DNA from: Methanobacteriota archaeon
Lineage (GTDB): Archaea; Thermoplasmatota; E2; DHVEG-1
Direction of reading: 5' to 3'
Assembly (NCBI GenBank): GCA_963769885.1
Contig: CAVYNH010000006.1
Location: 256,001-320,000 of the forward strand
Length of the DNA stretch: 64,000 nucleotides
Under the pieces are notes generated by a model that worked only from the letters and a program-made list of their open reading frames with translations, did not search any database and was not told the DNA's origin. Made by a program: the position numbers and the translations under genes. Within the stretch, counting starts at the first letter, position 1. Each line of letters opens with the position of its first letter. Positions 1 through 59,914 of this stretch are shown here, one piece after another.

Positions 1-1622
1 CCACCGGCACCACACCAGCAGTCCCCGCCAGCCTCACCCTCCACGCCACCCACCCCACCACCCCACCCAACCAACCAGAACGCATCACCCTGGACCTCGC
101 CATCGACACCCGAACCCCCGCCACCATCTCTCTCACCGCCAACATCCAACTCCACACCCTTGACCTCACCGCATACCACGTCCTCCCCGCCTTCACCACC
201 GGCACCACCCTCCCATCGGACGCCCTCCGGCTCCTCATCACCGACGGCCTCCTCACCCTCGACGCCATCCACACCCACACCATCCAACCCCTCATCGACC
301 GCCTCCAACCCCTCCTCCAAAACACCACCCTCAACCAACCCCTCACCTTCACCTTCACCTGGGACAACACCACCACCAACCCCACCCCACCGTTCAACAC
401 CACCCACATGGACACCACCCCACCCCTCACCGCCCAATACCACGACCCACACATCCGCCTCACCATCGACAACCTCACGGCCAGAGCCTACTTCGGCCTC
501 ATCAACGCAGGCGCCAACGCCACCCTCACCCCCACCAGCCTCAACATCGACACCAAGAACACGCTCCTCGGCCTCCCCACCACCGTCACCCTCACTCTCC
601 CCCAAAACATCACCCTCAACAACCAACACACCATCACCTGGAACCAAACCACCAACACCACCGGCACCCTCCACTCTGACCTCCAACCCCAGCCCCCCTA
701 CACCACAGAAAAACACACCACCACCATCACCATCGACATCTCCAAGATGGACCTCAACCTCATCGGCCTCTTCACCGGCAAAACCGAACTCACCACAACC
801 ACCACCCTTACCCAACACGACGCCCTCAACGTCATCCGCACGCCCCCAGAGATCCACCTCCCCACCACCATGACCCTCCCGTTCCTCAACGCCGACGCCT
901 ACCGCCTCTGCACCGAAGAAGGCCTCCTCACCCAAAATGACCAGACCACGATCCTCGACACCCAACGAACCCTCTTCGAACAACGCCTCACCACCATCTA
1001 CAACGGCCGCACCATCAAAGCCCTCACCAACACTAAAACCTACACCACCAGCCTCCAATGGAATGGCGACATCGCCACCATGGACAACCTCGCCCCCATC
1101 ACCATCGACGCCTACGCCGACGACGACGCCACCCTCGCCGCCAGCCTCAGCCTCTCCCCCGCCACCTTCACCATCGCACCCCTCCACTTCACCCTCCCCC
1201 ACATCGCCAACACCACCACCACCTACCGCCTCATCTTCCCCTCAGGCCAGACCCTCGCCGCCGTCACCACCCAAGGACAGCCCTACGCACAAGGCAACAC
1301 CAGCGACGGCAGAGCCTACATCGAATTCCTCTTCAACGACACCAGCACCATCCTCACCACCCCCGTCACCTGCACCCTCGCCGTCTCCACCTTCTACGTC
1401 CTGGCCCTCTTCCTCCCCCTCATCCTCGTCATCGTCCTCATCGTCATCCTCCTCATCGTCATCCTCCTCATCCGCAAACGACGGAAACGCTCCCCTGGCC
1501 TCCCCAAACAACGTAAAACCAAACCCAAGAAAAAAGGAGAGGAACCAGAAGAACCCACCGGCAGCGAAGACGCGGAAGACTTTTATGTGCCCCCGCCACC
1601 GCCCTCATCCCGCCGCCGATAA
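1..1622 (+). CDS. Membrane-anchored surface protein, 5'-truncated by the window edge
   Basis: The frame of ORF 408..1622 is open from base 3. C-terminal TM helix (LALFLPLILVIVLIVILLIVILLI) is followed by a basic tail. Internal repeat: SDALRLLITDGLLT / ADAYRLCTEEGLLT. Confidence 0.8.
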   Translation, partial: TGTTPAVPASLTLHATHPTTPPNQPERITLDLAIDTRTPATISLTANIQLHTLDLTAYHVLPAFTTGTTLPSDALRLLITDGLLTLDAIHTHTIQPLIDRLQPLLQNTTLNQPLTFTFTWDNTTTNPTPPFNTTHMDTTPPLTAQYHDPHIRLTIDNLTARAYFGLINAGANATLTPTSLNIDTKNTLLGLPTTVTLTLPQNITLNNQHTITWNQTTNTTGTLHSDLQPQPPYTTEKHTTTITIDISKMDLNLIGLFTGKTELTTTTTLTQHDALNVIRTPPEIHLPTTMTLPFLNADAYRLCTEEGLLTQNDQTTILDTQRTLFEQRLTTIYNGRTIKALTNTKTYTTSLQWNGDIATMDNLAPITIDAYADDDATLAASLSLSPATFTIAPLHFTLPHIANTTTTYRLIFPSGQTLAAVTTQGQPYAQGNTSDGRAYIEFLFNDTSTILTTPVTCTLAVSTFYVLALFLPLILVIVLIVILLIVILLIRKRRKRSPGLPKQRKTKPKKKGEEPEEPTGSEDAEDFYVPPPPPSSRRR

Positions 1623-2791
1623 GCCCGCAACACGTCCGGCAGACGCACCGCCAGCCCCGGCGCCGCCGCCAACACCGGCAGCACCAACCGCGACGGATAA
1701 TCAATATCCCCATAGCGATCGATCGCCGCCCGCACCCGCGGCCGCCGCAGCTCACGCAACCACGATTCTAACACTGGATCACTCATTGAGCGGTAATACC
1801 GCCGAAATGCCATCCCCCACGACAGCTCACGGCCGACCACCCGCTTCCACCGCAGCTGATACCGCTGAAGATCGTGTACGGAAAACACCGAGGCCTCAAA
1901 CGCCTCCGTGATGGTTCGCGCACATTGTCGCGCGCACAACAAGCCGGTGACGATGCCGCCGCCGGACGTCGGCTTCACCTGCGCCGCGGCATCCCCGACG
2001 AGTAAGACACGGCCTTGAACCGAAGGCATGACTGGCCCCAAAGGCACTAGGCCACCGTACCGGCAGGTTAGAGAACCATCTGCAACTGGAGGGCGGCGCA
2101 GCAGCGACTCGAAGCACTCCCGCATCGACGGTGACGAGTGCTTGGTTTTGCACAACCCGATCCGCGCACAGGTCCCCTTCTCATTCATAGGGATGACCCA
2201 GGCGAAAAAACCAGGGGCAACCCGCGAGCCGGTGAAAATCAGCGTCGTTTTCGGATCTAAATCCACATTCTCGATTTCTCCTCCGATTCCCTCAAGCATT
2301 TCGGTGGGCTGAGGAAAGTTCAAACAAGCGCGGACGGATGATAGGGCACCATCCGCACCGACGAGAATCTTCCCGGAAAACGATCCGTGAGCACTCTTCA
2401 TGATTACGCCGCTGGCATCCTGATGCACTTTTCTCACTTTTTCACCGGTCAAAAGCGTGGCTCCGGCATCGATGGCTAGCCGGCCTAGCGCCTGGTCGTA
2501 GCGTACGCGGTCGATAACAAGCGCATGAACTCGGTCGCCCCCGATGCGCTCGATGACCTCATCCGGGGAATGGATTTGAGCGCCTGTGATCGTATTCGAG
2601 ACGATGGACTCTTGAGGAAGCCGGGGGATTGAAAAGGCACGGTCAGTAACCAATCCAGCGCAATGGAGCGGACGACCAACCTCATTATGTTCCTCGAATA
2701 TCCCGACGGAGTAGCCGGCCTCGGCCACCCAGCGGCCAACCGCGCAGCCGATGGGGCCGCCGCCGACGATAAGCAGGTCGTATCGATCCAT
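1583..2791 (-). CDS. Geranylgeranyl reductase family FAD-dependent oxidoreductase
   Basis: GGGPIG Rossmann motif, PLHCAGL, GFFAWVIP, LVGDAAAQVKPTSGGGI. Confidence 0.9.
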   Translation of the reverse strand: MDRYDLLIVGGGPIGCAVGRWVAEAGYSVGIFEEHNEVGRPLHCAGLVTDRAFSIPRLPQESIVSNTITGAQIHSPDEVIERIGGDRVHALVIDRVRYDQALGRLAIDAGATLLTGEKVRKVHQDASGVIMKSAHGSFSGKILVGADGALSSVRACLNFPQPTEMLEGIGGEIENVDLDPKTTLIFTGSRVAPGFFAWVIPMNEKGTCARIGLCKTKHSSPSMRECFESLLRRPPVADGSLTCRYGGLVPLGPVMPSVQGRVLLVGDAAAQVKPTSGGGIVTGLLCARQCARTITEAFEASVFSVHDLQRYQLRWKRVVGRELSWGMAFRRYYRSMSDPVLESWLRELRRPRVRAAIDRYGDIDYPSRLVLPVLAAAPGLAVRLPDVLRAYRRRDEGGGGGT

Positions 2792-2848
2792 TTTATGGCA
2801 AAGAATTATCCAAAGCTTTATAATAAAAACGGTAATTCAGAAGGACAC

Positions 2849-3187
2849 ATGACCTTCGGTGACCCGAGCCGCTTGTTTTCTGGTTCTCTCTTCTTCTTTG
2901 GAAGGCGGAAGAATGGGCTGTCGGGCGACCCGGAGATGCTTTGTAAATTCGTCTACGATTCTTCTGGGACGCGGCTCGGGGAGAGCGTCTCGTTCATGGA
3001 GGATGTCCTGATTGTGAAGGACGGGAGTCGGTTCCTTGGGGTGCCGATGAAACATGTCCATAAAAATCAATCATCGTTAGTGGTAAAAGGGATCTATGAT
3101 CTTTCCAAAGCCTATGCGTTAGGGGAGAAATGGCGGATGGAGACCCGCCGTGAGATGCCGTCCTATGATAAAGATCGCGCCCCTTGA
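2849..3187 (+). CDS. Small archaeal beta-barrel protein (PRC-like, DUF5749-like)
   Basis: CKFVYDSSGTRLGESV...FLGVP...A.ALGEKW pattern. Start taken at ATG 2849, outside the divergent upstream gene. Confidence 0.6.
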   Translation: MTFGDPSRLFSGSLFFFGRRKNGLSGDPEMLCKFVYDSSGTRLGESVSFMEDVLIVKDGSRFLGVPMKHVHKNQSSLVVKGIYDLSKAYALGEKWRMETRREMPSYDKDRAP

Positions 3188-59098: not shown

Positions 59099-59220
59099 GC
59101 GCCATCAATGCGTACACACCTGCGTATCCATCTGGTACAAACCTAGATAAAAACCACGTAAAATAGAACAAGCCGCGGAAACGGGACGCAAAGGAAAAGG
59201 AGAGGAAACAACTGGACCTG

Positions 59221-59796
59221 ATGTATCTTGTGCTCATGGCATTCCCTATTCTTGGGGCAGGCATCAAGTTCATTGACGACGCCTTCGATGAACGGACCTT
59301 CAACAAGGCCTTTGCTATCATCCTTGCTCCACTCATGGGAATCCTCTGGGCTTATACCATGATCCAGGACCCCATCGCCGCCACGATCCTGCTCGCGGTC
59401 GTCCTCGGCGTCTTCCTCAAAGGTAAAATCGACAACGTCGCTCACGGCCTCGGGCTCGCTGTCATCATGGTGATCGTCATCCTCGCAGGCATACAACTCC
59501 TCTATCTCCCCCTTGTCCTGCTCATCGCCGCGGCCGTCCTTGACGAGGTCGGCAACGACGTCGTGGACTACAACCGAGGTGTTCTGAACGGGCATTTCAC
59601 CCACCGGGCCGTTATCGTCTTCTTCGATCAACGATGGCTCACCAAGCTGACGATTCTCTATGTCGTCCTACTCGGCATCTTCCCCTGGTACTACTTCCTG
59701 GCGATGCTGCTCTTCGACGGCGCTTATCTCGTCGTCCGCATGTACAGCAAGGCGCGCCAGGTGCAACTGGCGACCATCACAGGAGCAGCAACATAA
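59221..59796 (+). CDS. Multi-TM protein with Asp-rich motifs (paralog 2)
   Basis: GAGIKFIDDAFDE, KGKIDNVAH, VLDEVGND. Confidence 0.8.
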   Translation: MYLVLMAFPILGAGIKFIDDAFDERTFNKAFAIILAPLMGILWAYTMIQDPIAATILLAVVLGVFLKGKIDNVAHGLGLAVIMVIVILAGIQLLYLPLVLLIAAAVLDEVGNDVVDYNRGVLNGHFTHRAVIVFFDQRWLTKLTILYVVLLGIFPWYYFLAMLLFDGAYLVVRMYSKARQVQLATITGAAT

Positions 59797-59914
59797 CCTT
59801 GACGCTGCCGAGTGGGGATCGCTTCGCGCACTTAACATTTTTACTAAGAAACCGAAGAAAAAACCAGAGGGAATTATTATAATCTTTTTACGGTTTCTTT
59901 GTCAAGTGAGGATA

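Follow-up and report, generated by a model that had tools for sequence, protein, structure and literature searches.

Strand asymmetry of base composition is a standard readout of genome replication, transcription, and repair, and prokaryotes normally show only a weak form of it, which extends over replichores or follows individual genes. In this work, we analyze a stretch of 64,000 nucleotides (positions 256001-320000 of contig C6, hereafter the window) from a metagenome-assembled genome (MAG) of 2.09 Mb in seven contigs, whose nearest public relatives are uncultured Thermoplasmata/Thermoplasmatales MAGs. In this archaeal genome, the asymmetry is as strong as in mitochondria, is organized in domains of ~5 kb with spacers as anchor points, and depends little on the direction of genes.

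Several described systems can serve as points of reference. In vertebrate mitochondria, the H strand is G+T-rich and the L strand A+C-rich, with one polarity over the whole 16-kb molecule, a bias explained by single-stranded time and transitions. In human chromosomes, N-domains display replication-associated skew jumps at origins. Jumps of this kind have likewise been described at yeast origins (Marsolier-Kergoat 2012, PMC3459929). In Haloferax volcanii, the GC skew of third positions and noncoding DNA is anticorrelated with gene strand bias and follows a chromosome-scale cumulative trend (PMC12999951). Lastly, the GRINS reported in 2021 are duplicated regions of >500 bp, >80% identical to another region and tied to gene conversion in polyketide synthase (PKS) genes (PMC8256042). 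Our literature search yielded no description of kilobase-scale, orientation-independent skew domains in an archaeon.

Alternating Skew Domains

Along the + strand, the GC skew computed in 1-kb windows ranges from -0.67 to +0.57 and the AT skew is opposite in sign, a coupling that holds across all 1-kb windows of the genome (r = -0.78). As a sequence-only reading of this DNA had claimed, C/A-rich and G/T-rich tracts alternate, and they lie where that reading had located them. The former cover 1-2.7k (GC skew down to -0.71), 6.0-10.0k (to -0.67), 20.8-21.8k, 26.7-34.0k (weak, -0.1 to -0.33), 39.9-44.0k, 49.8-54.2k, and 55.9-59.8k, and the latter 2.7-6.0k, 21.8-26.7k (up to +0.66), 37.0-39.9k, 44.0-49.8k, and 54.2-55.9k; the tract delimited by that reading at 8.3-10.0k does resume beyond an AT-rich island, at 21.0-21.8k. 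Genome-wide, we delineated 316 domains (median, 5.0 kb), between which the polarity changes ~300 times; the skew spectrum peaks at periods of 10-15 kb, with little power beyond 50 kb.

Attributing this skew to genes requires some care. Since long frames are open on both strands across long stretches, as seen in the open reading frame (ORF) listing of the window, ORF lists are useless for gene calling here. Genes of the studied genome (G000) were therefore called independently of composition, as the frames with the best tblastn match to G003, an unskewed, single-contig member of the same family. Under strict homology calling, with an overlap filter tightened against shadow-frame matches, this gave 1,194 segments covering 1.10 Mb, on which a frame classifier was trained and cross-validated (recall of 0.86-1.0 with ~1% false positives in each skew class); the extended set comprises 1,665 genes. 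Across the genome, shadow frames of conserved genes also give significant tblastn matches to relatives, with 756 conflicts, and automatic annotation of these genomes likely contains antisense false genes. Within the window, frame 9136-9708 (-) was rejected as a gene, being the shadow of a + strand ORF under the 9.0-9.75k tract.

Skew Mostly Follows Position Rather Than Gene Direction

With these gene calls, gene strand accounts for little of the + strand skew at fourfold-degenerate sites (R2 = 0.20-0.23, genome-wide), which leaves most of it unexplained and agrees with the earlier statement that the pattern is not only coding-strand bias. We accordingly reject gene orientation as the main cause, all the more so as coding-strand skew takes both signs: at fourfold sites, the coding-strand GC skew goes from -0.94 (5th percentile) to +0.66 (95th percentile), and genes with 94% C and 0% G at these sites coexist with genes that have 85% G and 3% C. 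Overall, 59% of native genes have a C/A-rich coding strand (C-class) and 20% a G/T-rich one (G-class). Once the mean coding-strand effect (a fourfold keto skew of -0.257) is subtracted, the residual retains 77% of the variance and forms a positional wave, which adjacent genes share nearly as well on opposite strands (rho ~0.5) as on the same strand (rho ~0.6). Convergent pairs, with strict homology filtering, likewise remain negatively correlated when the skew is referred to the coding strand. The skew also changes inside genes, with a 5'-to-3' difference >0.5 in 33.5% of them versus 1.6% after within-gene shuffling of sites, in line with the gradual intragenic change described previously. The skew is thus a positional wave, mostly independent of gene direction.

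Within the window, this independence can be followed gene by gene, and the G/T-rich coding strands singled out by the sequence-only reading (the 5' end of cdc48, JAB/nadK/GGR, gene 23218, and the 3' end of aclA) are found again at fourfold sites. Indeed, the 5' third of Cdc48 has G.57, T.27, and C.10; fourfold G reaches.77 in JAB,.73 in NadK, and.49 in GGR (a geranylgeranyl-reductase-like gene); ORF 23197-23499 (+) has G.78 and T.18; and the ATP-citrate lyase gene AclA flips within the gene, from C.64 in its 5' half to G.50 in its 3' half.

Because the genome is a MAG, one may ask whether assembly, polishing, or sequencing chemistry, for instance a strand-specific base conversion in reads, could have written such compositions. 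We deem this scarcely conceivable: hundreds of genes are open and have strong Pfam and homology matches, when random G>A or C>T changes would create stops, and C makes up 52% of all bases in the first 1,000 nucleotides (1-1000), a proportion that cannot come from converting balanced sequence. In the phosphoenolpyruvate (PEP) synthase gene, codon positions 1 and 2 are normal and close to those of relatives, and only the third position is extreme (C.71, A.17, G.10, T.03). The pattern moreover recurs in G001, a separately assembled genome of another species of the same genus, and in G014 and G015, which belong to other genera.

The Pressure Acts on Nucleotides

Skew is strongest at third codon positions, where C/A endings would provide perfect pairing with GNN and UNN anticodons, and a third-position excess of C on the coding strand is known in Haloferax (PMC12999951). 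These features could evoke selection on codons or mRNA, favoring C-ending codons or unstructured A/C-rich messages in some genes and G-ending codons in others. We consider this explanation very unlikely. Noncoding spacers share the polarity of the domain that contains them (96% sign concordance, rho 0.85, GC skew of about ±0.28), opposite-strand neighbors have a common + strand polarity, switches fall inside genes, and the extreme C and G genes cited above coexist in the same genome. Both polarities even occur within one co-oriented cluster of 27 ribosomal-protein genes (C4:271.8-288.2k), which swings through -0.89, +0.25, -0.89, and +0.74; neither expression level nor transcription direction thus sets the sign, and explanations by expression and codon selection fail. 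In the same vein, no correlation was found between skew sign and protein conservation, used as a proxy for expression.

The pressure therefore acts on nucleotides and not on codon choice, and it extends into proteins. Codon positions 1 and 2 track the fourfold skew (r = 0.3-0.6), and C-class proteins contain 1.9 times as much Thr, 1.7 times as much His, 1.6 times as much Asn, 1.3 times as much Pro, and 0.55 times as much Val, in accordance with the Thr/His/Pro richness noticed earlier in proteins encoded on C/A strands; Val, Glu, Arg, and Gly are depleted in these proteins. On this basis, the footprint is a genome-wide, lineage-specific mutational or repair bias and not a codon-usage effect, and it points to a very strong local bias of mutation or repair on one strand, with silent sites at ~80-90% C on one strand and G on the other.

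Sources, Sinks, and the Transcription Alternative

We hereafter call "source" a down switch, where the + strand passes from G/T-rich to C/A-rich (n = 116), and "sink" the reverse, or up, switch (n = 143). It follows from this geometry that, on both sides of a source, the C/A-rich strand is the one that leaves it in the 5'->3' direction. In total, 162 of the 259 switches lie inside genes, as do 110 of the 143 sinks. Sources have a median distance of 156 bp to a gene 5' end, with 71% within 300 bp (42% for random positions); 43 of the 116 occupy divergent spacers, 41 are flanked by co-oriented genes on both sides, and the spacers that hold sources measure 281 bp, compared with 137 bp for the remaining promoter-bearing spacers. 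Low explanatory power of gene strand, intragenic switches, and shared spacer polarity together bear out the view of a position-dependent, strand-asymmetric process with many switches and a grain finer than that of replichores.

The placement of sources makes a transcription-linked process the main rival explanation. Passage of the polymerase would make the non-template strand C/A-rich, and genes antisense to strong transcripts would become G/T-rich on their coding strand, provided that strong promoters fire both ways or read through into their neighbors and that G/T-rich genes are weakly expressed. The predominance of C-class over G-class genes (59% vs. 20%) is as expected under such a process, as is the vicinity of sources to 5' ends and, more moderately, of sinks to 3' ends (54% within 300 bp vs. 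40% for random positions). The most robust spill-over is found between convergent neighbors, whose coding-referenced skews have a rho of about -0.4 under strict homology filters, and per-gene polarity is conserved in the congener. However, residual polarity crosses divergent junctions (rho 0.51) just as well as convergent ones (rho 0.50), and the 41 sources between co-oriented genes fit poorly: at 26.7k, where the switch falls in a spacer of only 40 bp that separates two genes of the - strand, antisense transcription would need to predominate over 7 kb of genes. Likewise, ribosomal-protein genes in a single co-oriented cluster reach +0.74, and several orthologous genes differ in polarity in G014. 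Classical transcription asymmetry, besides, consists of a G+T-rich coding strand, and the polarity observed here is the opposite. All in all, we regard transcription as a possible but doubtful cause of the wave.

A Probable Origin next to orc1/cdc6

One of the sources in the window has a particular sequence context. The spacer at 5631-6032, adjoining orc1/cdc6, contains two boxes resembling the origin recognition box (ORB), at 5742-5756 and 5900-5914, which flank an AT run at 5787-5808. The exact core TTCCAGTGGAAA, which we take to be the archaeal ORB consensus core, occurs once in the 2.09-Mb genome, in this very spacer. Archaeal oriC regions are recognized as spacers linked to orc1/cdc6 with repeated ORB elements around an AT-rich stretch, and this is the arrangement found, such that 5631-6032 is, as judged from sequence, a probable oriC. 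It is a down switch with the same polarity as the other sources, and it lies between two - strand genes, so that gene orientation cannot account for its switch. A second, shorter Cdc6-like ORF on contig C7, near 394.3-395.0k, has no ORB-core site and is not a source.

A 2026 survey places an origin of Haloferax volcanii where the cumulative GC skew of third positions and noncoding DNA reaches a local maximum (PMC12999951), a reversed polarity that the ORB site of the window also has. On a larger scale, the 50-kb skew means on either side of the ORB site are within ~0.05 of each other, which, along with the low spectral power above 50 kb, leads us to reject replichore skew. From this absence of large-scale skew around the ORB site, it follows that either forks travel only a few kilobases or fork direction does not write the skew.

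Conservation in Relatives and Skew-Free Islands

The polarity of individual genes is largely kept in the congener: across ~33 syntenic genes, values in G001 match those in G000 with r = 0.80-0.85 and a slope of 1.29, the amplitude being lower in G001. For instance, PEP synthase third positions in G001 have C.59 and G.23, and most other family members have a balanced, AT-rich composition at these positions. Further away, G014 and G015 (GC ~0.43-0.45) also have the signature of anticorrelated GC and AT skews, with a polarity only partly common with G000, whereas the correlation is zero or positive in three unskewed relatives. Sinks therefore move over evolutionary time, and the skew arose recently within one family of Thermoplasmata. 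In G030, from another family of the same order, third positions of PEP synthase are G/T-rich (T.41, G.29) and the GC/AT correlation over a 20-kb locus (G030:C16:10000-29999) is positive; this bias may be of a different kind.

As stated in the sequence-only reading, AT-rich islands lack the pattern: island genes are flat, with a standard deviation of the fourfold keto skew (keto4) of 0.18 versus 0.47 for native genes. Two islands, 10007-21015 and ~34393-36553, are absent from otherwise syntenic G001 DNA and appear to be recent insertions interrupting older skew domains, the first being alternatively explicable by a deletion in G001. Their GC content is 0.25-0.47, and a third AT-rich stretch begins near 59.8k. 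The first island (GC 0.29-0.47) interrupts a single C/A domain and contains a 522-aa ORF, 10217-11785 (-), which is transposase-like by eye only. In the second, an element at 35047-36371 has an 83% identical copy on contig C7. The skewed native DNA is itself single-copy, as a blastn comparison between the window and the entire genome revealed no other copy of it with >80% identity.

Substitution Axis and a Possible Mechanism

Pooled over C-class genes, fourfold sites have C.81, A.08, G.07, and T.04; pooled over G-class genes, they have G.65, C.18, T.12, and A.05, so that pyrimidines amount to 85% and 30%, respectively, versus 50% and 51% in the G003 orthologues. Since transitions cannot alter the ratio of purines to pyrimidines, deamination alone is insufficient and transversions are needed; the C>T and A>G deamination put forward in the sequence-only reading hence fails as a sufficient cause. 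The commoner polarity, with a C/A-rich coding strand, also runs counter to deamination on the non-transcribed strand, from which the opposite bias would result.

The only mismatch system known in this family, NucS/EndoMS, offers a possible origin for this axis. The cleavage results given in PMC4838380 indicate that EndoMS/NucS cuts G/T, G/G, and T/T mismatches and acts barely, if at all, on A/C, C/C, and A/A; this specificity is also documented in PMC6159521. Being blind to A/C, C/C, and A/A, NucS would let survive those errors that replace G or T by A or C on the new strand, hence a keto/amino axis that includes transversions. In addition to the observed domain anatomy, its independence from gene strand, and its conservation in the congener, we infer that DNA synthesis is involved and that NucS filters its errors. 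Under this hypothesis, a bidirectional process of DNA-synthesis type would start at some 120-160 fixed source sites, mostly promoter-bearing spacers, the probable oriC being one of them. On either side of a source, the strand leaving 5'->3' would be driven toward C (and A) and its complement toward G (and T); waves from neighboring sources would meet at sinks not tied to gene boundaries, giving domains of ~5 kb, and an effect of the coding strand, smaller in size (fourfold keto skew of -0.26 on average), would be superimposed on this positional wave. Candidate processes are dispersed replication initiation, R-loop or recombination-primed synthesis, and resection followed by refilling at recurrent breaks, the errors being in each case filtered by NucS/EndoMS. 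We give this reading a probability of about one half.

Streptomyces relies on NucS too. There, GRINS, which are tied to gene conversion, carry the same G+T versus C+A signature (PMC8256042), and it may be envisioned that the skew reported here results from strand-biased gene conversion between the genome copies of a polyploid cell. In such a scheme, recurrent breaks or nicks in open spacers would be followed by outward resection and a few kilobases of heteroduplex, which NucS would correct or destroy only where a mismatch contains G or T, thereby fixing A/C alleles on one strand per side. The specificity of NucS fits the axis, the greater length of source spacers is compatible with this scheme, and tract lengths of 2-8 kb would be typical of resection and conversion. 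Yet polyploidy and break hotspots are assumed, an invading 3' tail enriched in A/C predicts an up switch at the hotspot when the anchored switches are down, NucS exists in unskewed relatives too, and conversion between repeats is excluded by the single-copy nature of the skewed DNA. We therefore find gene conversion quite unlikely.

Several observations also weigh against the hypothesis of synthesis from many spacers filtered by NucS. Firstly, 52 of the 116 sources lie inside gene calls, domains are shaped as a symmetric dome, when fixed origins combined with random termination should give a sawtooth, and jumps are of similar steepness whether up or down. Secondly, the search for motifs at switch points suggested with the sequence-only reading did not deliver a shared one: in source spacers, nothing survived multiple testing, and the ORB core was found at no source other than the orc1 spacer. 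Thirdly, genomes across the family, the unskewed G003 and G008 among them, have NucS, and no MutS was found in them, which implies that the filter can set the axis of the skew and not its onset; likewise, the content in RNase HII, PolB, and Y-family polymerases did not differ among the five genomes checked. Fourthly, the fourfold identity between G000 and G001, 0.65 versus 0.55 by chance, is so near saturation that a single-step substitution spectrum cannot be read from it. Finally, DNA synthesis and many initiation sites are themselves inferred, and the location of sources near promoters fits a transcription-linked process as well. A more radical version, in which the chromosome would be copied or repaired from ~150 fixed, mostly promoter-associated start sites, about one per 12 kb, with the ORB origin merely one of them, seems rather unlikely to us.

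Organization of the Window

The features below rest on domain boundaries, fourfold composition, and Pfam matches. The first C/A-rich domain of the + strand (1-2681) starts ~1.5 kb before the window and holds a Thr-rich surface-protein ORF of C-class (3-1622, +), as well as the 3' half of a geranylgeranyl-reductase-like gene identified by Pfam (1583-2791, -), whose coding strand is hence G-rich in this part. The surface protein has a transmembrane anchor and a basic tail in its C-terminal part. In the ectodomain, Thr is highly abundant, N-x-T sequons are numerous, and Gly, Val, and Glu are nearly missing; the skew accounts for part of this composition, given that identity to the G001 orthologue is only 56%. 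The following G/T-rich domain (2681-6035) contains NucS (3505-4320, -; fourfold C.83) and Orc1/Cdc6 (4359-5630, -; fourfold C.88), both named from Pfam, and ends at the probable oriC.

Beyond the latter, a C/A-rich domain (6035-10006) covers two G-class genes, ORF 6033-6377 (-) and Cdc48 (6380-8962, -; Pfam), and its skew crosses a divergent junction into the Cdc48 5' end. On the other side of this junction lies a C-class ORF, 9055-9753 (+; fourfold C.87), OB-fold-like, Thr-rich, and membrane-anchored, which has no in-frame ATG, GTG, or TTG. The two initial Met codons of its G001 orthologue are AAC and ACG here, with a GGAGGT box kept 6 nt upstream of the ACG. From this sequence comparison, the start codon seems to have been eroded by the skew pressure (T>C), and the ORF may start at ACG or CTG, or the gene may be dying. 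Genome-wide, C-class genes showed no enrichment in missing canonical start codons.

After the first island, the C/A-rich domain continues (21016-21843) with a TctA-like gene (21132-22103, +), up to an up switch at a convergent junction near 21.8-22.1k. In the next G/T-rich domain (21843-26725), the genes for DUF2240, ORF 22601-23122, PEP synthase (23555-25975), and pyruvoyl arginine decarboxylase (PvlArgDC) are all on the - strand and of C-class, and ORF 23197-23499, on the + strand, is of G-class. The weaker C/A-rich domain (26725-34023) consists of seven co-oriented - strand genes (bPH, SBBP, ORF 30071, JAB, NadK, GGR, and Endo_dU), mostly of G-class, Endo_dU at the far end being near neutral (-0.11). 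Past the second island, a G/T-rich domain (36967-39886) holds C-class genes for 2-oxoacid:ferredoxin oxidoreductase (-), followed by a C/A-rich domain (39886-43958) with a NosD-like gene, ThiD/ThiN (41035-42372, +; C-class), and ORF 42461 (+), which ends inside AclA (43262-45112, -), the 3' half of which is G-rich. The 5' half of AclA, AclB, isocitrate dehydrogenase, and ORF 47631-49595, all - and C-class, occupy a G/T-rich domain (43958-49813) closed by a source in a divergent spacer. Three + strand C-class genes then fill a C/A-rich domain (49813-54189), up to an up switch inside ORF 53814-54548; a short G/T-rich domain (54189-55929), with ORF 54968-55948 (-; C-class), ends at another divergent source spacer; and a last C/A-rich domain (55929-59800) fades into the third AT-rich stretch after 59.8k. 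It carries ORF 56361-58265 (+; fourfold C.80), for which the radical-SAM label was given by the earlier reading from sequence alone.

Pfam also supports the identities of both geranylgeranyl-reductase-like genes, PEP synthase, pyruvoyl arginine decarboxylase, JAB, NAD kinase, Endo_dU, 2-oxoacid:ferredoxin oxidoreductase, ThiD/ThiN, isocitrate dehydrogenase, and the two ATP-citrate lyase subunits. The latter (AclA and AclB) adjoin isocitrate dehydrogenase at 43262-47634 (-), and PEP synthase (23555-25975, -) and 2-oxoacid:ferredoxin oxidoreductase are nearby, a set that constitutes reductive tricarboxylic acid cycle gene content.

Implications and Comparison with Known Systems

This lineage represents a natural experiment in which unskewed relatives can serve as controls. 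It raises the question of how DNA copying proceeds in archaea outside the canonical origins, of what a narrow NucS/EndoMS mismatch range costs a genome, and of how far mutation pressure reaches into proteins, with Thr nearly doubled and Val nearly halved. If the chromosome did have ~150 start sites, its initiation density would be eukaryote-like instead of resting on one to four origins, and a mismatch filter blind to A/C would have let synthesis errors rewrite silent sites and part of the proteome. From a practical standpoint, shadow ORFs, skew-based origin prediction, and codon-usage estimates of expression will mislead in these genomes.

Compared with Haloferax volcanii, the genome analyzed here shares a strand that is C-rich at third positions of genes and in noncoding DNA, and the reversed polarity at an origin. 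The 2026 survey, which does not mention Thermoplasmata, reports neither orientation-independent kilobase-scale domains nor a near-fixation of one base (PMC12999951).

A further likeness is found in GRINS. These have the same G+T versus C+A axis with correlated GC and TA skews, the strongest effect at third positions, abrupt changes inside still-functional genes, and the same shifts in proteins, the C/A side being enriched in Pro, Thr, His, and Gln and the G/T side in Gly, Val, and Cys. GRINS are recognized by mean absolute GC and TA skews >0.15 over >500 bp that are correlated; in the window, the absolute GC skew is 0.2-0.7 and the absolute AT skew 0.1-0.5 over kilobases, and r = -0.78 amounts to a positive GC/TA correlation. 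Membership was nonetheless rejected because GRINS are duplicated and the sole copy with >80% identity is that of the element at 35047-36371, in an AT island. Here, the skew instead concerns nearly the whole native genome of an archaeon, in ~316 single-copy domains of ~5 kb.

The likeness to yeast and human origins lies in many jumps at fixed intergenic sites with opposite polarity on either side, the probable origin of the window being such a site. The amplitude is probably larger here than at eukaryotic origins (80-94% of one base at fourfold sites), the spacing is ~12 kb in a 2.1-Mb archaeal genome, domains are domed and not N-shaped sawtooths, and the other sites carry no origin motif.

Vertebrate mitochondria, lastly, are comparable in strength of the bias, in its keto/amino axis, in its gradients, in its effect on proteins, and in the mirrored composition of minority-strand genes. 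Unlike in their single-polarity molecule, polarity switches hundreds of times along the genome described here, and the balance of purines and pyrimidines is shifted as well.

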